Assembly: GCA_965223705.1 (NCBI GenBank)
Contig: OZ245015.1
Span: 896,001 to 960,000 of the forward strand
Length of the DNA stretch: 64,000 nt
Source: Myxococcota bacterium
Lineage (GTDB): Bacteria > Myxococcota_A > UBA9160 > UBA6930
Reading direction: 5' to 3'
Below are positions 20,880-48,580 of this stretch, piece after piece. The translations under genes and the position numbers were made by a program. A model generated the notes under the pieces. That model did not search any database and had not been told where the DNA came from. It was given only the letters and a program-made list of their open reading frames with translations. How positions within the stretch are numbered: position 1 is the stretch's first letter; every line of letters begins with the position of its first letter.

Positions 20880-21562
20880 CGGCGGCGGCGAGCGGCCGCG
20901 CCGCAACCGACTAGACCGAGACCGATCATCAACGCAGTGCCCGGCTCAGGGGTCGGCACCGTCGCCATTCCCGGAGAGGCCGCCGCTAGCGACAGATCGG
21001 TGTGTCGGACGATATCGCCGTTCATGTTGCGAACGAACGACTCGCCGGGGAATGCGAGAGGAGTCTCGAAAGAATCGACGACCGTCATGCCGTCGCGGAG
21101 TTGGAACACGTCTCCGGTGTTCGTCGCGCAAAGTTCGCAACCGGAAGTGTCGCCGTTCACGATGGCTGCGGCGCTCGCCGTGAAGGCGCCCAGGTTCGCG
21201 CTGTTGCCGAAGATGACGAAGTAATCCCCCGCCCCGAGCACGAACGAGCTATCGAACCGATATCGGAAGGTGGGATTCGAGGCGTCCCAGAGTTCGAGAC
21301 CCTGAAGGTCGACCGCGGAGCCGCTGCTGTTCCAGATCTCGACGAACTCGTCGCCGGAGAGGTGGAGGAAGCTGTTGTCGTTGACGCCGTCGTTGTTCGA
21401 ATCGAAGGGGGTATCTCCGATGTCGGGATCGCCTGGGTTCGCAAGCACTTCGTTGATTACGATGCCGGCGAAGCTCATCGCAGAACTCGGGAGGGTCGAC
21501 ACGCTCAGGGTGAGAGCGGCGCCCGCGGCGAGCATCAGCAGTGTCCGAAAGCGAGGCTTCAT
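20876..21562 (-). CDS. Lamin-tail-domain protein with PEP-CTERM sorting signal
   Basis: Signal peptide; IVINEVLANP and DEFVEIWN (LTD); TPEPGTALMIGLGLVGCGAAARRRR. Confidence 0.85.
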   Translation of the reverse strand: MKPRFRTLLMLAAGAALTLSVSTLPSSAMSFAGIVINEVLANPGDPDIGDTPFDSNNDGVNDNSFLHLSGDEFVEIWNSSGSAVDLQGLELWDASNPTFRYRFDSSFVLGAGDYFVIFGNSANLGAFTASAAAIVNGDTSGCELCATNTGDVFQLRDGMTVVDSFETPLAFPGESFVRNMNGDIVRHTDLSLAAASPGMATVPTPEPGTALMIGLGLVGCGAAARRRR

Positions 21563-21757
21563 CGATCAAATCTCCACAGCGGCGCAGTCCGCCCAAGACG
21601 TACGTCCGCGACGGGTCTATTTTGACGCATCGCAGAGGTTCTTGGAAGGTTGTTGCCACAGAGGGCGAAAGGTGGCACAAAAAGGCGCCGCACCTCCGAC
21701 GGGCCGATCACCAGCCGGCAACTTGTCCAACAATCCATCGATAGCAAAGGGGAAACG

Positions 21758-22798
21758 GTGACTCCTGTCCGACTGAGCGTGCTCGACCAGTCGCCTGTCC
21801 GCCGGGGCTCGAACGCAGCGACCGCCTTGCGAGAGACGGTGGCTCTCGCCGAACACTGCGACGCGCTGGGCTACGAGCGGTTTTGGGTCGCGGAGCACCA
21901 CAATCTGCCCGGGTTCGCCGGGACGAGCCCCGAGGTCCTCATCGGGGAGATCGCGTCGCGGACCCGGGGCATTCGAGTCGGGAGCGGCGGCGTGATGTTG
22001 CCCCACTACAGTGCGCTTCACGTCGCCGAGGGATTTCGCGTGCTGGAAGCGCTGCATCCGGGTCGAATCGATCTGGGCCTCGGCCGCGCGCCGGGAAGTG
22101 ACCCGCTGACGGCGGCCGCGCTCGCTCACCCCGGCGGGCAACGCGACGTCGCAACGTATCCCGAGCAGGTCGACACCCTCCTGGCCTATTTGGGTGCCGG
22201 GTTGCCCGCTTCTCATCCCTTCGCCCGAGTGAAAGCCGCTCCCACGGACGGGAGTGCCCCGCAGGTATGGCTCCTGGGCTCCGGGATCGATTCGGCCCTG
22301 TTGGCCGCCGAGCGCGGGTTGCCCTTCGCGTTCGCGCATTTCTTCGCGTCGTCGCTCGAATACGCCCCCGCCATCGTCGACGCGTACCGGAAACACTATC
22401 GCCCCTCGGACCACTGGCCGGCCCCCCGACTCTTGCTCGCCGTAAGCGTGATTTGCGCGCCCACGGAGGAGGAGGCGGTCGATCTGTCGGGTAGCCTGGG
22501 GCTCGCGCGGCTGCTCCTCGCTCGGGGTCGCCCCGAGGCGATCGCGTCGGTGGACGAGGCGCGTTCCTACCCGTACACGCCGGAAGAACGGGCCTTTGTC
22601 GACTCCTTTCGATCTGCCTGTGTCCTCACGACGCCCGATGCCGTCGCCGCGGCACTGGGTCGCATGGTCGACGAATTCGGCGCGGATGAGATCGCCGCGG
22701 TGACGGTCTGCCACGATTTCGACGCCCGAAAACGCTCCTACAGCTACCTCGCCGAAGCTTGCGGCCTCTCGCGACGGAGGAATCCCACCGAAACGTGA
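21758..22798 (+). CDS. LLM class flavin-dependent oxidoreductase (luciferase-like)
   Basis: LSVLDQSP, WVAEHH, GSGGVMLPHYS and GRIDLGLGRAPG motifs. Confidence 0.92.
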   Translation: MTPVRLSVLDQSPVRRGSNAATALRETVALAEHCDALGYERFWVAEHHNLPGFAGTSPEVLIGEIASRTRGIRVGSGGVMLPHYSALHVAEGFRVLEALHPGRIDLGLGRAPGSDPLTAAALAHPGGQRDVATYPEQVDTLLAYLGAGLPASHPFARVKAAPTDGSAPQVWLLGSGIDSALLAAERGLPFAFAHFFASSLEYAPAIVDAYRKHYRPSDHWPAPRLLLAVSVICAPTEEEAVDLSGSLGLARLLLARGRPEAIASVDEARSYPYTPEERAFVDSFRSACVLTTPDAVAAALGRMVDEFGADEIAAVTVCHDFDARKRSYSYLAEACGLSRRRNPTET

Positions 22799-22861
22799 CC
22801 TCCGTAACAGTTTCACCCCACCGCAACGTCTAGTCTGTCCCTGGTTGGCGGACACGAGTGG

Positions 22862-23128
22862 TTGGGGGGATCGCCTGTGGAAACGCAACAGCAAACCCGT
22901 GAGCGACCGTTTCAGTCGTTGACCGGTCATCGACCGAGGCGTGGGAAGCTCGGTCTGTGGACACGGCGGCTCGAGGAACTCCGCGCGACTCACCCGAGTC
23001 CGCCTCAATTTCTCGAGTCCGCCCATCGTCTCCTGCGCTGGAGCGCCATCGAAGACGACGTCGACTTGTACGTCGCGGTCCGCTGCATGATTCACGAACT
23101 CGCCGAGGAGCCCGCCCCGGGAGCGTGA
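22862..23128 (+). CDS. Small hypothetical protein; start uncertain
   Basis: Fills intergenic space; no recognisable motif. Confidence 0.35.
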   Translation: MGGSPVETQQQTRERPFQSLTGHRPRRGKLGLWTRRLEELRATHPSPPQFLESAHRLLRWSAIEDDVDLYVAVRCMIHELAEEPAPGA

Positions 23129-23808
23129 GCGACCGCGGGGCCTCTCCGTTGACGTCCCGCGGCGGCGAGTCCGGCCAATCCAATCGCGAGAAGCGCAGCC
23201 GTGTCCGCCTCCGGGGTCAGCACATACTGCTGTTCGATCGCCGAGATCCGCGCACTCCCGCCGAGGTCGGGACCCACGAGAGAGCTGTCGATCAACACGG
23301 TGGTCGTTGCGCGGAAGCCCATCGACGGCCCGAAGGTCTCGGCCGCGAGAACGACGGCGTCGCCGGGAAGACCTCCCGTATCAAAGGTCGAAAGCACAGC
23401 CAGACTGCTGCCCGCTTCGGTGAGAACGACATCCACAGATGCCTGGGCACCCGCGCCGCTCGCGACGTTGTTCGCGAGTAGCGTCGCTCCAACCACGTTT
23501 TCGCTACCCGCCGCAGTCACGTTGTAGGCGAGGAACAGGTCGCCCACTTCTCCATCCGCGCCGGACAGCGGGCCGGTCAGGCGAAAGCCGTCGCCGTCAA
23601 ACGCGACGTCGTAATTCGCGAGGTTCGTACTCAAATCCCCGTTGATCTGAACTTCGAAATCACTGAAGAGCAAACCGCCGGAAGCCACGGCACCGCCGGC
23701 GATCAGTGTGGCGAGGCTGACGGCAGAAGCAGCGGTTGCGAAGGCCAAACCGATGGGGATGGCTAGAAAGAGCGAAAAGAATCTGACGAAGCGAAAGCCG
23801 GCCGTCAT
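23092..23808 (-). CDS. Exported protein with variant PEP-CTERM-like signal (TPEA)
   Basis: RBS AGGAG, signal peptide, C-terminal LTPEADTAALLAIGLAGLAAAGRQRR. Confidence 0.75.
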   Translation of the reverse strand: MTAGFRFVRFFSLFLAIPIGLAFATAASAVSLATLIAGGAVASGGLLFSDFEVQINGDLSTNLANYDVAFDGDGFRLTGPLSGADGEVGDLFLAYNVTAAGSENVVGATLLANNVASGAGAQASVDVVLTEAGSSLAVLSTFDTGGLPGDAVVLAAETFGPSMGFRATTTVLIDSSLVGPDLGGSARISAIEQQYVLTPEADTAALLAIGLAGLAAAGRQRRGPAVAHAPGAGSSASS

Positions 23809-41684: not shown

Positions 41685-41804
41685 GGTGCGACCTCGAAAC
41701 ACCCCCTTCGCACCTACAAAATATCACATCGAGGGGTATCGCTTCGTGTGCGAATCTTGGGGAATGGTTCCGCTGCCGCAAAAGTTGCATCACTCAGGCG
41801 TCGC

Positions 41805-43040
41805 ATGAAATACGCCCGCCGCGGCCGGAAGATCGTGATCGCGATGGTCGGCTTGCCCGCCCGGGGCAAGACCTTCACGGCGCGAAAGCTCGTGGGCTAC
41901 TTGAGCTGGCTCGGTTACCCGACCCGATCCTTCAACGTCGGAGAAGCTCGGCGAACGAAGCTCGGACCGGGCCAATCTTCGGACTTCTTCGACCCGCAAA
42001 ACGTCGCCGGCGAGGTGCAACGGCGGGCGCTGGCCGAATCCGTTCTCGCCGACGCGTTCGACTGGTTGCGTTCGGAGGGACGCATCGCGATCTACGACGC
42101 GACCAACAGTACGCGCGAGCGGCGTGACTGGATCGCAGGGCGCTGTCGAGAAGAAGATCGCGACCTGCTCTTTGTCGAGATCTCCACGAAAGAAGAGCTC
42201 GTCGAAGACACGATCCGCGAGACGAAGATCACGTCTCCCGACTACGAGGGGCGGACCGAAGAGGAGGCCCTGGCGGATTTCCGGGAGCGCATCGCGCACT
42301 ACGAGGGCGCGTACGAACCGCTCGAGCCGGACGAAGGCGCGTGGGTGCGACTCGTCGATCGCGGGCGACAGATTGTCATCAACCGGGTGCACGGATGGAT
42401 CTTCGGAAGAATCTTGTCGTTCCTCGGGAACTTCCAAGTCGCGGCGCGCCCGGTTTGGTTGACGCGTCACGGCGAGAGTCAATTCAACCGCGAAGATCGC
42501 GTCGGTGGCGATTCCGAGCTTTCTCCGCGCGGCCAAGCGTACGCGACGGAGCTTGCCCGCCACGTGCGCAGAGCGTTTCGACCCGACGACGACTTGGACG
42601 TCTGGACCAGCACGCTCGCCCGCACGGTGCAGACCGCGGAGCCGCTCGAGGCGGATATCGGAAGGTGGCGCGCACTCGACGAGATCAACGCCGGGGTTTG
42701 CGATGGGCTGACCTACGCGGAAATTGACGAGCGCTACCCGGACGTCGCGTCGGGACGAAGCCGCGACAAGTTCGAGTTTCGCTACCCGGGTGGCGAGAGC
42801 TATGCCGACGTCGTGAGCCGTGTCGATCGCGTCATCATCGAGCTCGAGCGCTACCAGACGCCCGTCCTCGTCATTGCGCACCGTGCGGTTCTGCGGGCGC
42901 TCTACGCGTACTTCATGCAGCTCTCGCCTCGGGAGGCGCCGCACATCGATATGCCGCTCCATACCGTCATCAAGCTGACGCCGACGGCGTACGGTTGTCT
43001 GGAGGAGCGCGTCGAGCTCCCTCCGAAGATCGAGCGCTAG
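41805..43040 (+). CDS. Bifunctional 6-phosphofructo-2-kinase/fructose-2,6-bisphosphatase (PFKFB type)
   Basis: MVGLPARGKT, FNVGEARR, DATNSTRERR, SPDY, RHGES, LDEINAGVCDGLTY, RYPGGESY and PLHTVIKLTP. Confidence 0.93.
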   Translation: MKYARRGRKIVIAMVGLPARGKTFTARKLVGYLSWLGYPTRSFNVGEARRTKLGPGQSSDFFDPQNVAGEVQRRALAESVLADAFDWLRSEGRIAIYDATNSTRERRDWIAGRCREEDRDLLFVEISTKEELVEDTIRETKITSPDYEGRTEEEALADFRERIAHYEGAYEPLEPDEGAWVRLVDRGRQIVINRVHGWIFGRILSFLGNFQVAARPVWLTRHGESQFNREDRVGGDSELSPRGQAYATELARHVRRAFRPDDDLDVWTSTLARTVQTAEPLEADIGRWRALDEINAGVCDGLTYAEIDERYPDVASGRSRDKFEFRYPGGESYADVVSRVDRVIIELERYQTPVLVIAHRAVLRALYAYFMQLSPREAPHIDMPLHTVIKLTPTAYGCLEERVELPPKIER

Positions 43041-44520: not shown

Positions 44521-45768
44521 ATGGCTTTTGCGAGCGAAGGGCGATTGACCTCGGCTTTCCCGAACCTAGGCACGGATCCGGTGCCTACCGATATTTACTG
44601 GAAGCCCGAGTGGTACGAGAAAGAGCTCGAAGCGATTTTCTCGCGAACCTGGCTCGCCGTGGCGAGTGGTCACGAAATCCCGTGCCCGGGCGACTTCGTC
44701 GTGAAACACATCCCGACGTTCGGCTACAAGGTCATCATCGTGCGCGGGCGCGATGGCAAAGCCCGGGCTTTTCACAACGTCTGCAGCCACCGGGGAAGCC
44801 ACGTCGAGCTTCGCGAACGAGGCAACTGCAAGGTCTTTTCGTGTCCATTCCACGGCTGGGCTTTCGATCACGAGGGCAAACTCGTCAGCGTGCCCGCCGG
44901 AAAGGATTTTTTCGATCTCGATCGACATGAGAAGGGGCTGGCGCAGATCCACGCCGACGAGTGGGCGCACCACATCTTTATCAACTTTGCCGATGAACCC
45001 GAGGAAAGTCTCGAAACCTATCTTGGAGAATTCGGCCGCGATCTCGTCGACTGGCCCGGCTGGGAACGCTGCAGCGTTTCGTGGGAGTTCAAAGCCGAAG
45101 TCGAGGTCAATTGGAAAGTGCTCCTCGACGCGTTCAACGAGATCTATCACATCCCGACGATTCACGGACGTTCGATCGCGCCGATGTTCGTGACGGAGGA
45201 CAACCCGACTGGCGAGGTGATCGGTGTGACACGCAAGGGCCCGCACCGAACCCTCTCTCTCTACGGGAATCACGCCTACCAACCCACGCCGGGCCAGGCA
45301 CTGGGCTATGGCGCGGCGCCCGGCCAACCGGTTACGAAAGCGGGCCCCGCCGACGAGAAGGATCGATTGCCGAAGGGTATCAATGAAGGTCGCCACGAAG
45401 CATGGGGTGTCGACGTGCCGACCGTCTTCCCGAACTGGGTGCCCATCGTGACTTCCGACTCTTGGTTTTCGCACCAGATTTGGCCGAAGGCGGTGAACCG
45501 ATCCGAATGGCGCATGCGTATCTACATGCCGCCCGCGGAGAACGCGGCCGAACGCTACGGCCAGGAGTACGCCAGTGTCGAGCTGCGCGATACCGTCATG
45601 GAAGACGCGAACACGTTCGAGCGCGTTCAGGATTCCCTCGACAAAGGGCTGCTTTCGCACTTCGTGTTCCGCGACCACGAAGTGTCCTGCCGGATGCAGT
45701 ACCACATTGTCAAAGAGTGGGTGGAGGCGTACGAAAAACGCCAGGCCGCCGGGGCCGCGCACGTCTAG
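44521..45768 (+). CDS. Rieske aromatic ring-hydroxylating oxygenase alpha subunit
   Basis: CSHRG...CPFHGW Rieske site; EIYHIPTIH and EDA mononuclear iron ligands. Confidence 0.93.
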   Translation: MAFASEGRLTSAFPNLGTDPVPTDIYWKPEWYEKELEAIFSRTWLAVASGHEIPCPGDFVVKHIPTFGYKVIIVRGRDGKARAFHNVCSHRGSHVELRERGNCKVFSCPFHGWAFDHEGKLVSVPAGKDFFDLDRHEKGLAQIHADEWAHHIFINFADEPEESLETYLGEFGRDLVDWPGWERCSVSWEFKAEVEVNWKVLLDAFNEIYHIPTIHGRSIAPMFVTEDNPTGEVIGVTRKGPHRTLSLYGNHAYQPTPGQALGYGAAPGQPVTKAGPADEKDRLPKGINEGRHEAWGVDVPTVFPNWVPIVTSDSWFSHQIWPKAVNRSEWRMRIYMPPAENAAERYGQEYASVELRDTVMEDANTFERVQDSLDKGLLSHFVFRDHEVSCRMQYHIVKEWVEAYEKRQAAGAAHV

Positions 45769-45783
45769 CGCTACACTCGGTCC

Positions 45784-46092
45784 GTGCCGCCCGAACCCGT
45801 TCTCGAAGTCGCCATCCTCGACGTGCGCGGTGGTCCCACCGACGCGTTCGAAGCGGCCTTCGCGGAAGCGCAGCACATCATCGCAGCGACCTCTGGCTAT
45901 CAGCGCCACGAGCTGCGCCGCTGTGTCGAGGCCGAAGACCGGTACCTGCTTCTCGTCTGGTGGGATTCGCTCGAGAGTCACACCGAAGGCTTTCGCGGCT
46001 CCGAAGCGTATGGGCGCTGGCGCGAGCTGCTGCACCATTTTTACGAGCCGTTCCCAACCGTCGAGCACTATGTCGCGGTCAACGGACCGTAG
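45784..46092 (+). CDS. Antibiotic biosynthesis monooxygenase (ABM) family protein
   Basis: YLLLVWWDSLESHTEGFRGS...LLHHFYEPFPTVEHY. Confidence 0.88.
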   Translation: MPPEPVLEVAILDVRGGPTDAFEAAFAEAQHIIAATSGYQRHELRRCVEAEDRYLLLVWWDSLESHTEGFRGSEAYGRWRELLHHFYEPFPTVEHYVAVNGP

Positions 46093-46103
46093 AGAGGAGC
46101 CCG

Positions 46104-46505
46104 ATGTATAAACTCCATAAACCCGTCTCGCAATTAGTCGAAGAAGCGCGACTCGAGATCGCGAACCACTCCGCGGAGGAAGCGAAACGCCGCGTCGATG
46201 AAGAGGGCGCGCTGCTCGTCGATGTTCGAGATATCCGAGAGCTCGACCGCGAGGGGAAGATTCCCGGCGCGTTCCATGCGCCGCGGGGGATGCTCGAGTT
46301 TTGGATCGATCCCGATTCGCCGTATTTCAAAGAAGTGTTCGCCGCCGACCGCGAGTTCATCTTTTTCTGAGCGGGTGGCGGACGGACAAGTTTGTCCGTG
46401 AAGATGCTTCAAGACATGGGAATGCCTCGCGTATCGCACATCGTCACGGGTTTCGGCGGCTGGCGCGAAGCCGGTTTTCCAGTCGAGGGCGGCAAGTCGT
46501 CGTGA
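46104..46505 (+). CDS. Rhodanese-like selenoprotein (Sec at the active-site position)
   Basis: LVDVRD, GKIPGAFHAPRGMLEF, FIFF-UGA(46368-46370)-AGGGRTS...GFGGWREAGFPVE; RBS GAGGAG. Confidence 0.9.
46382..46399 (+). promoter_or_regulatory. Putative bacterial SECIS element
   Basis: Perfect inverted repeat ACGGACAA-GT-TTGTCCGT separated from the in-frame UGA by 11 nt. Confidence 0.75.
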
Positions 46506-46560
46506 GCGGGCGCGCCGAGGGAGTCTTGCACTGCAACTCGTGCGGTAGCAAGATGGCCCC

Positions 46561-47187
46561 ATGCCCACTTTACTCTACATCGAAGCTTCCCCTCGAAAGG
46601 AGCGTTCGCACTCGATTCGAGTCGCCGACGCCTTTCTCGACAAATACGCCGCTGCGAATCCGTCGGACACGATCGATCGGCTCGACTTGTGGTCGGCCGA
46701 CCTCCCGCGCTTTGATGGAGCCGCGCTGGACGCGAAGTACGCGATCATGCACGGGGAATCCCCGACCGAAGAGCAGCAGAGCGCTTGGGGGACGATCGAG
46801 CGCGAGTTCCGCCGCTTTGGCGATGCCGACAAATTCGTTTTCAGCGTCCCGATGTGGAACTTCGGTGTTCCCTACGTTCTGAAGCACTACATCGACGTCA
46901 TCACGCAGCCGGGCATGGCGTGGAGCGTTTCCCCTGACGGAAGCTACCAGGGTCTCGTTCAGGGCAGCGCCGTCGTGATCTACGCCAGCGGCGCCGCCTA
47001 TCACGACGGCAGCGGCTTCGAGGCCTTTGATCTGCAGAAACCCACCGTGGAGAATTGGCTCGCGTTCATCGGTATCACCGAGGTGCAGCGGATCGTGCTC
47101 GCCGGTTCTTTGGGTGATCCCGACGCCACGCGGGCGGCTGAGGCGGCTGCGGTCGCAGAAGCGGAGAAACTCGCGGCGCGCTTCTAG
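46561..47187 (+). CDS. azoR: FMN-dependent NADH-azoreductase
   Basis: EASPRKERSHS and PMWNFGVPYVLKHYID motifs. Confidence 0.88.
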   Translation: MPTLLYIEASPRKERSHSIRVADAFLDKYAAANPSDTIDRLDLWSADLPRFDGAALDAKYAIMHGESPTEEQQSAWGTIEREFRRFGDADKFVFSVPMWNFGVPYVLKHYIDVITQPGMAWSVSPDGSYQGLVQGSAVVIYASGAAYHDGSGFEAFDLQKPTVENWLAFIGITEVQRIVLAGSLGDPDATRAAEAAAVAEAEKLAARF

Positions 47188-47206
47188 AAGCTCGGAGGTC
47201 GCGGAG

Positions 47207-48580
47207 ATGGCTGTGAAGAAGCGCATGTTCTTCAACGCGTTCCACATGAACTGCGTCGTTCACCAATCACCAGGGCTCTGGGTTCGAGAAGACGACCACA
47301 TGGCCGACTACAAGAACTTGGATTCCTGGATCGAGTTCGCGAAGCTGATCGAACGAGGGAAGTTCGACGCCGTATTCCTCGCCGATGTCGTGGGCACATA
47401 CGATGTCTACGGAGGTAGTCGCGACGCTGCGGTCCGGGGCGCTGCCCAGGTTCCGGTGAACGATCCGATGCTGCTCATCCCTCCGATGGCGGCGGTGACC
47501 GAGCACCTGGGGTTCGGCTTTACGAGCTCCGTACTGCAAGCGCATCCCATCACGTTCGCTCGGCAGATCACCACGCTCGACCACCTCACCAAGGGACGGG
47601 TGGGCTGGAACATCGTGACGTCGTATCTCGAGAGTACCGGGCGCGCGTACGGCTTGGGCGGGCTCCCCGACCACGACGTCCGCTACGAGATGGCCGACGA
47701 GTTCTGCCACCTCTGTTACCAGCTGTGGGAAGACAGTTGGGCCGATGACGCCGTCATCGTCGACCGAGAGCGAGGCATCTACGCCGACCCGGCCAAGGTT
47801 CGCGATGTTCTTCACCAAGGAGACTTCTACAAGTTCGAGGGTTGCTACATCGCAGAACCCTCTCCGCAGCGAACCCCCGTGCTGTTTCAAGCCGGCGCGT
47901 CTGAACGCGGTGCGAAGTTTGCCGGCGACCACGCGGAATGCATCTTCGTCATCGGCGCAACGCCTGAAATCAGCGGCAACTATGTCAAGAACGTGCGTGC
48001 GCAAATGGCGCAGCGTGGGCGCAAGCCCGAGGATGTCCTGGGCTTTGCGTACATGAAGGTGATCACCGGAGGCACGGAAGAGGAGGCGCTCAGACTCCGC
48101 AACGAATACCTCGAGCAAATCGACTACGACGGAGCGATGGCCCTCATGGGTGGTTGGGCCGGCGTCGATTTGAGCTCTCTCGATCCCGACCAGCCGGTGG
48201 AATACATCGAGACCAACGCCGTGCGGACCATGCTGCACAGCTTCACCCAAGCGGATCCCAACCGAGAATGGACCGTCCGCGACATCACCCGCTACATCGG
48301 CTTGGGCGGCGCAGGCCCCGTACTCGTGGGTGCGCCCGAACAGATTGCCGACCAGCTCGAGGATTGGATCGACGCGGGCGTCGATGGTTTCAACCTGTCG
48401 TACGCCACCCTCCCGGGAAGTTTCGAAGACTTCATCGACGGCGTCGTGCCTGTGCTTCAGCGCCGCGGCCGCATGCAAACGGAGTACGCCGAAGGCACTC
48501 TTCGCGAAAAACTCTTCCCGGGTCGTGGCGCGCGCATCGCGCGTCCACACCCGGCGGCGACGTGTCGGCGACCTTGGTAA
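47207..48580 (+). CDS. NtaA/DmoA/DszA family FMNH2-dependent monooxygenase
   Basis: FDAVFLAD, GRVGWNIVTSY and PSPQRTPVLFQAGAS motifs. Confidence 0.92.
   Translation: MAVKKRMFFNAFHMNCVVHQSPGLWVREDDHMADYKNLDSWIEFAKLIERGKFDAVFLADVVGTYDVYGGSRDAAVRGAAQVPVNDPMLLIPPMAAVTEHLGFGFTSSVLQAHPITFARQITTLDHLTKGRVGWNIVTSYLESTGRAYGLGGLPDHDVRYEMADEFCHLCYQLWEDSWADDAVIVDRERGIYADPAKVRDVLHQGDFYKFEGCYIAEPSPQRTPVLFQAGASERGAKFAGDHAECIFVIGATPEISGNYVKNVRAQMAQRGRKPEDVLGFAYMKVITGGTEEEALRLRNEYLEQIDYDGAMALMGGWAGVDLSSLDPDQPVEYIETNAVRTMLHSFTQADPNREWTVRDITRYIGLGGAGPVLVGAPEQIADQLEDWIDAGVDGFNLSYATLPGSFEDFIDGVVPVLQRRGRMQTEYAEGTLREKLFPGRGARIARPHPAATCRRPW

Follow-up and report, generated by a model that had tools for sequence, protein, structure and literature searches.

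Rhodaneses carrying selenocysteine (Sec) have been predicted since 2005 (PMC1088965), and further predictions have followed (PMC2398784, PMC1976440, PMC9312934). A 2026 review distinguishes five forms of rhodanese selenoprotein, which are placed in its table after the block of experimentally verified entries (PMC13188914). Form 2 is given in Table 1 of that review as a rhodanese-related sulfurtransferase (COG0607, PF00581) with a UxxG motif and with MBM9537886.1 as its representative (PMC13188914). No biochemical study of a Sec rhodanese was found in the literature searched.

The gene described here resides in a 64,000-nucleotide stretch of DNA, the whole of which is referred to as the window. 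Its features, numbered from the first nucleotide of the window, are as follows.

46095–46099, + strand: Shine-Dalgarno-like AGGAG, seen in the sequence; the starts of many relatives likewise have purine-rich stretches upstream.
46104–46505, + strand: coding sequence of a stand-alone, 133-amino-acid rhodanese-domain protein of the RPA3614/2HHG-like subfamily, a predicted selenoprotein with Sec at residue 89 (U89); from Pfam, phmmer and a structure model.
46368–46370, + strand: in-frame TGA at the catalytic Cys column, predicted to be read as Sec; from the alignment and codon counts.
46368–46385, + strand: six-residue active-site loop U-A-G-G-G-R, which aligns with CAGGLR of RPA3614; R94 is invariant.
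46382–46399, + strand: putative SECIS upper stem-loop, ACGGACA / AGTT loop / TGTCCGT; loop G 46390 is position 23 from the U of UGA.
46503–46505, + strand: true stop TGA, without a SECIS-like hairpin downstream in a hairpin scan of TGA stops.

The ATG at 46104 opens a rhodanese frame in which codon 89 is TGA (46368–46370), and 44 sense codons (FIFF-U-AGGGRTS...GFGGWREAGFPVE across the TGA) follow before the frame ends at 46503–46505. The product of read-through is a complete rhodanese of 133 residues. These coordinates agree with the original prediction, made from the DNA letters, of an open reading frame that meets a TGA and goes on for 44 codons. That prediction also anticipated that annotation pipelines would truncate the gene, and the corresponding database entry (P0008) is indeed an 88-amino-acid protein that ends before U89. 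A scan for promoters and terminators around the gene gave nothing above chance. With high confidence, we read this locus as an intact stand-alone rhodanese gene whose in-frame UGA almost certainly encodes Sec, and whose product is likely to transfer sulfane sulfur by means of a catalytic selenium atom.

Contigs from two sequencing runs (depth 33.7 and 13.2) cover positions 45900–46800 with one mismatch each, at 45932, and agree with the TGA codon; because both runs come from one study and possibly from the genome's own source samples, their agreement tests the base call but does not amount to independent biological evidence. These short-read contigs speak against a sequencing error, and they show neither the TGC nor the TGT that the original prediction had named as evidence against itself.

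The Pfam Rhodanese domain (PF00581) is matched by residues 23–122, across the TGA, with an E-value of 7.5e-17 and 62 bits against a gathering cut-off of 22.2. A phmmer search of the PDB places FIFF-U-AGGGR opposite FVFY-C-AGGLR of RPA3614 from Rhodopseudomonas palustris (2HHG; E 2.4e-37). An AlphaFold model of the 133-residue protein, built on a 74-sequence alignment, has a pLDDT of 95 and a pTM of 0.88 (pLDDT 42 when predicted from the single sequence), and it superimposes on 2HHG with a TM-score of 0.90, an rmsd of 1.4 Å and 45% identity (Foldseek). The other Foldseek matches listed, YgaP and the Wolinella polysulfide-sulfur transferase among them, also have the rhodanese fold. The domain score and the fold thus both identify the protein as a rhodanese, and its loop U-A-G-G-G-R has the six-residue signature of this family, with the catalytic chalcogen first and Arg, Thr or Ser last (PMC8533005). 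None of the NCBIfam models reaches its cut-off with this protein.

The closest kin are Cys-bearing RPA3614-type proteins with 55–70% identity. RPA3614 and the Cys subfamily share the fold, the length, a GMLEFW insert and the loop C-A-G-G-x-R with the protein studied here, whereas RPA3614 differs from it in having Cys for Sec, R-S-A-L-A for R-T-S-L-S, and no hairpin. RPA3614 is the nearest solved relative and bears the title 'possible tyrosine phosphatase' (2HHG), and a literature search on it found no paper. The source genome also encodes a Cys paralogue that is 57% identical and has a CASGWR loop (L053:1441-1848, + strand; G000:C1:2968823-2969230). The homology match to this gene spans G000:C1:2968829-2969194. 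The gene sits between an open reading frame of luciferase-like oxidoreductase type and one of CoA-transferase type, both named by eye. The paralogue falls elsewhere in the tree than the Sec protein, of which it may be a selenium-independent counterpart.

Among the five catalogued forms, form 2 has in common with this protein the Pfam domain, a Sec that opens the active-site loop, the UxxG motif (here U-A-G-G) and a loop that ends in G-R. By domain and motif (PF00581, UxxG), the protein is therefore assigned to the form 2 bin. However, the form 2 representative MBM9537886.1 appears by eye to be a longer fusion protein, in which the rhodanese domain is followed by a long C-terminal extension (PMC12013277 supplement), and, also compared by eye, it has no counterpart of the conserved GMLEFW...P-SPY insert of the family studied here. 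Its greater length and the missing insert argue against orthology, and the present protein, set apart in this way by eye, probably goes back to a Cys-to-Sec conversion of its own and is not orthologous to MBM9537886.1. The remaining four forms share with our protein the rhodanese fold and Sec in or near the loop. Form 1 (WP_010941598) is multi-domain, unlike this stand-alone protein. For form 3 (NF041203, rhodanese_LYCAU), the protein reaches 30 bits where the cut-off is 115, and it is without the CxU motif. Form 4 (MCY3690685, SseA-like, UxxG) likewise carries Sec at the catalytic position, but it has the tandem-domain architecture of COG2897, whereas ours is a single domain of 133 amino acids. 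For form 5 (TsoB, NF045694), the score is 20.5 bits against a cut-off of 805.

We further looked for this lineage among published sets. The strings GMLEFW/MLEFW and RTSLS are absent from the supplements searched, namely those of GOS (PMC2398784), Sargasso (PMC1088965), deep-Sep (PMC12013277) and PMC5029168, and the Actinomarina preprint makes no mention of rhodaneses. BSepDB may already hold members of the lineage. By analogy, the protein would resemble in its working the catalogued rhodaneses with Sec at the catalytic site, so that the kind is known and the lineage is one without a curated model of its own.

In an alignment with 73 full-length homologues, both the Cys of the catalytic column and R94 are invariant, so that the in-frame UGA stands, as originally proposed, at the catalytic Cys of the active-site loop (Cys in 73/73). 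We then counted codons at this column in 189 homologous loci, including the target (30 from the source genome and relatives, 79 from genomes and 80 from metagenomes). The codon is TGC in 130, TGT in 29 and TGA in 30, and TAA, TAG or a codon for another residue was found in 0/189. All 23 loci with at least 67% identity carry TGA, the target being counted; close orthologues that never have TGA would, by the original prediction, have refuted it. The terminal stop varies among the 30 loci (TAG 15, TGA 12, TAA 3).

When the truncated protein is used as the query, 117 of the best 120 database clusters stop at the strand before the catalytic residue, and 109 of these 117 are 86–89 amino acids long; for these clusters TGA is deduced from the protein ends, their DNA being outside the codon count. 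The annotation is thus wrong in the same way in a hundred or more database clusters, which a simple profile HMM combined with the hairpin motif would correct. By submitter labels, the hosts of TGA loci are mostly Acidimicrobiales, plus SAR324 and a few others. The exact pattern of TGA and hairpin occurs in 2/201 genomes of the source organism's class, and a similar pattern in 3/401 genomes of the class of one other host. This patchy distribution suggests horizontal spread or frequent loss.

These data also bear on whether the gene is a pseudogene, or the TGA an error, with a TGC turned into a nonsense codon and the Cys paralogue doing the job. Such a change takes one substitution, the paralogue exists, and the best 29 loci from 60 relatives of the source genome all lack TGA at this codon. 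However, 29 other loci have the same TGA and neither TAA nor TAG occurs at this codon, the downstream frame is intact and shows synonymous variation, the hairpin is conserved, and the TGA genomes all have selA and selB. Conservation of the TGA and of the intact downstream frame across distant hosts refutes this explanation, which we consider extremely improbable.

Sec decoding requires dedicated genes, and selA, selB, selC and selD, for which the original prediction had called for a search, are all present in the source genome. Each scores above its curated cut-off (selA 486 bits, selB 321, selD 270, tRNA-Sec 78), and ARAGORN also finds a tRNA with a TCA anticodon. Both selA and selB lie above cut-off in 16/16 other TGA-bearing genomes and in 5/22 Cys-bearing genomes, a comparison that covers 22 of 63 Cys-bearing genome loci and in which the genomes are related MAGs, with many TGA hosts being kin rather than independent.

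The selD gene (L010:328-2532, + strand; G000:C1 about 21330-23530) encodes a 734-amino-acid fusion protein whose N-terminal region resembles FAD/NAD oxidoreductases; the protein carries Cys (CGGCAAK) instead of Sec. The selB gene is located ~2 kb downstream of selD, and selA and selC lie elsewhere in the genome.

Another explanation is that an alternative code or suppression makes TGA a codon for Trp, Gly or Cys. One odd tRNA-like call by ARAGORN, possibly spurious and with a four-base anticodon 'ttca' (G000:C1 c[4419161-4419253]), could be taken to hint at this. However, TGA serves as an ordinary stop in this genome, at the end of 514 of 1276 long genes; the genome has a canonical tRNA-Sec; and every homologue without TGA has Cys at this column, never Trp or Gly. 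We therefore give this explanation hardly any credence, and regard Sec decoding at 46368–46370 as almost certain.

The source genome appears to be selenoprotein-rich, with three Sec rhodaneses beside ~25 other candidates. A script that searched it for coding-like read-through TGA codons returned 75 sites with Cys-type motifs, about 25 of which we take, by eye and from motif names, to resemble Prx, Bcp, AhpD, Trx, PrdB-like or UGSC selenoproteins. Two further sites have unfamiliar motifs and may be selenoproteins: G000:C1:208877 (+ strand; …QKTAG-U-YGPKEF…), with 561 codons before the TGA and 297 after it, and G000:C1:2765316 (+ strand; …AFDY-U-GGAL…), which is coding-like beyond its TGA and has a 14-pair hairpin.

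An inverted repeat, ACGGACAA-GT-TTGTCCGT, begins 11 nucleotides 3' of the TGA (46382–46399). The original prediction described it as a perfect hairpin with a two-nucleotide GT loop; its position and stem hold, but it folds as a seven-base-pair stem with a four-nucleotide AGUU loop, in which bases 15–21 (counted from the U of UGA) pair with bases 26–32. The predicted energy is -10.2 kcal/mol (z -4.2), and 0/200 shuffled sequences are equally stable, whereas for the whole 45-nucleotide region z is -2.9 and 1/200 shuffles is equally stable. As the original prediction stated, the 11-nucleotide spacing matches that of the upper stem of the E. coli fdhF SECIS; the fdhF gene, folded for comparison, agrees, with G23-T24 in both. 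The two elements are alike in an upper stem that starts from position 15 and in G23 and U24 in the apical loop, and differ in that the stem described here is unbulged at 7 base pairs, has an AGUU loop and is of another sequence.

The bSECIS model asks for a loop of 3–9 nucleotides, a stem of 4–16 base pairs, G in the first two loop positions, a spacing of 16–37 nucleotides and an energy of -7.5 kcal/mol or lower (PMC13188914). Checked by hand, the hairpin agrees with every term (loop 4 nucleotides, G second in the loop, stem 7 base pairs, spacing 18 nucleotides, -10.2 kcal/mol). As a control for chance, with criteria chosen after the hairpin had been seen, a hairpin with at least seven Watson-Crick pairs and a loop G at position 23 was found beside 0/514 ordinary TGA stops of long genes in the source genome, and such a hairpin anywhere in the allowed range beside 4/514. 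The gene's own terminal TGA (46503–46505) has no SECIS-like hairpin.

Among 28 distinct TGA loci, bases 20–27 are invariant, and codons +5 to +8 are frozen (CGG in 27, ACA in 21/21 that have Thr, AGT in 28 and TTG in 28). Three of these are minor members of their synonymous families in the source genome (ACA 6.7%, AGT 6.7%, TTG 12.9%). Most other conserved residues of the TGA loci differ at third positions, and Cys homologues vary their codons at the hairpin sites. Moreover, 7/28 TGA loci have U-A in place of A-U at pair 19-28, a compensatory change that probably represents few events inherited by kin. RNAalifold recovers the same helix, with bases 17–21 paired to 26–30.

The minimum-energy fold of the 45-nucleotide sequence by itself is a different register (11–19/24–32), which is 2.8 kcal/mol better than the conserved hairpin. 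This register is disfavoured, because its A19-U24 pair is broken in 7/28 TGA loci, and its count of double changes is matched by 97/500 shuffles versus 0/500 for the chosen register. The conserved hairpin becomes the optimal fold when at least the first 11 bases are removed, which we infer to be approximately those covered by the ribosome at the UGA. In a held-out search, the hairpin pattern with the codon left unspecified retrieved two new loci, both with TGA in a full rhodanese frame. The lower stem is not conserved among relatives. On its sequence and fold, we assign the hairpin as a SECIS.

The presence of a SECIS within coding DNA probably also explains a change in the protein. The residues after the loop are R-T-S-L-S or R-S-S-L-T in TGA loci versus R-S-A-L-A in Cys homologues, and the altered residues are those encoded by the hairpin; a change driven by the RNA signal is therefore probable. 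A FastTree phylogeny that included the loop columns grouped all 27 Sec sequences with six Cys proteins (support 0.65), whereas the two Sec subgroups were not joined when these columns were removed; 87 of 132 Cys loci, dropped at random, were left out of both trees. The six proteins that have Cys, are of full length and fall among the Sec sequences are P0002, P0003, P0004, P0006, P0033 and P0037. Five of them retain RTSLS or RSSLT, which suggests that such proteins are candidate Sec-to-Cys revertants.

We lean slightly toward the view that these loci constitute an uncatalogued sixth lineage of Sec rhodaneses. It would have arisen by an independent Cys-to-Sec conversion in the RPA3614 subfamily and spread patchily between distant bacteria, its members being truncated in more than 100 database clusters, with the hairpin rewriting the neighbours of the active site and some members reverting to Cys. 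If true, this would provide a natural Sec/Cys series for measuring what selenium does for sulfur transfer.

The steps proposed for decoding follow established bacterial Sec decoding (PMC13188914). SelB-GTP with Sec-tRNA would bind the G23-U24 loop of the hairpin in codons 93–99, and this complex would deliver Sec at codon 89. Within the U-A-G-G-G-R loop, Sec89 would then use its selenolate to attack thiosulfate or a per/polysulfide as the sulfur donor and form a Sec-Se-S intermediate, from which the sulfur would pass to a thiol or other acceptor in a ping-pong manner. Arg94 at the loop end would help in donor binding; in yeast RDL2, the loop-end Arg is required for thiosulfate turnover (PMC8533005). 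The protein reveals no new mechanism. The original prediction of a Sec-containing sulfur/selenium transferase is upheld for Sec by the conserved TGA, the hairpin and the sel genes, and for transferase activity it goes as far as the fold and loop suggest. By analogy with known rhodaneses, we consider it fairly likely that sulfur transfer is the main activity.

Less likely, though worth weighing, is that Sec decoding is real and the protein is mainly a selenium carrier (for delivery of selenide or selenite, for example to SelD) or a redox or phosphatase-like protein of rhodanese fold. Rhodaneses can carry selenium in vitro, and the many candidate selenoprotein genes point to a high selenium demand in this genome. 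However, the gene is not near selA, selB, selD or selC in the source genome, and there is no sel gene among the 63 neighbours scanned at other TGA loci. As to a phosphatase, the title of RPA3614 points in this direction, with no activity on record for it, and phosphatase-type loops have seven residues. The loop here has six and ends in Arg, which fits the sulfurtransferase signature instead (PMC8533005). Why selenium would be preferred in the sulfur transfer that we favour could conveniently be tested first on this protein, which is small and soluble and has a solved Cys relative (2HHG), a paralogue with Cys in the same genome and apparent revertants.

The gene is part of a same-strand run at 44521–48580 of the window (+ strand) that encodes a Rieske oxygenase alpha subunit, an ABM-family protein, the Sec rhodanese, an azoreductase-like flavodoxin and an NtaA/DmoA-family monooxygenase, with gaps of 15, 11 and 55 nucleotides among the first four genes. 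A conserved operon was considered and rejected: in a Pfam scan of 63 of the 86 neighbouring open reading frames called around other TGA loci, no family recurs across lineages and this arrangement is not seen. Some TGA loci do share neighbours, with gyrB or PD-(D/E)XK near several close kin and a luciferase-like gene near two. Because neighbours are not conserved among TGA loci, gene context gives no substrate.

Two other rhodanese genes with an in-frame TGA were noted in the source genome. One (L057:808-1833, + strand; G000:C1 about 145400-146430) combines a DedA/VTT membrane domain with a rhodanese domain that has a C-T-U loop (Pfam VTT, Rhodanese). The other (L059:790-1803, - strand; G000:C1 about 1886800-1887800) has a C-L-U loop and a fused C-terminal domain that resembles a class III nucleotide cyclase by eye and has no Pfam match at E 1e-8. 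Within the window itself, positions 41748–43040 (+ strand) encode a bifunctional 6-phosphofructo-2-kinase/histidine phosphatase (Pfam 6PF2K, E 1e-60, plus His_Phos_1), an architecture best known from eukaryotes.
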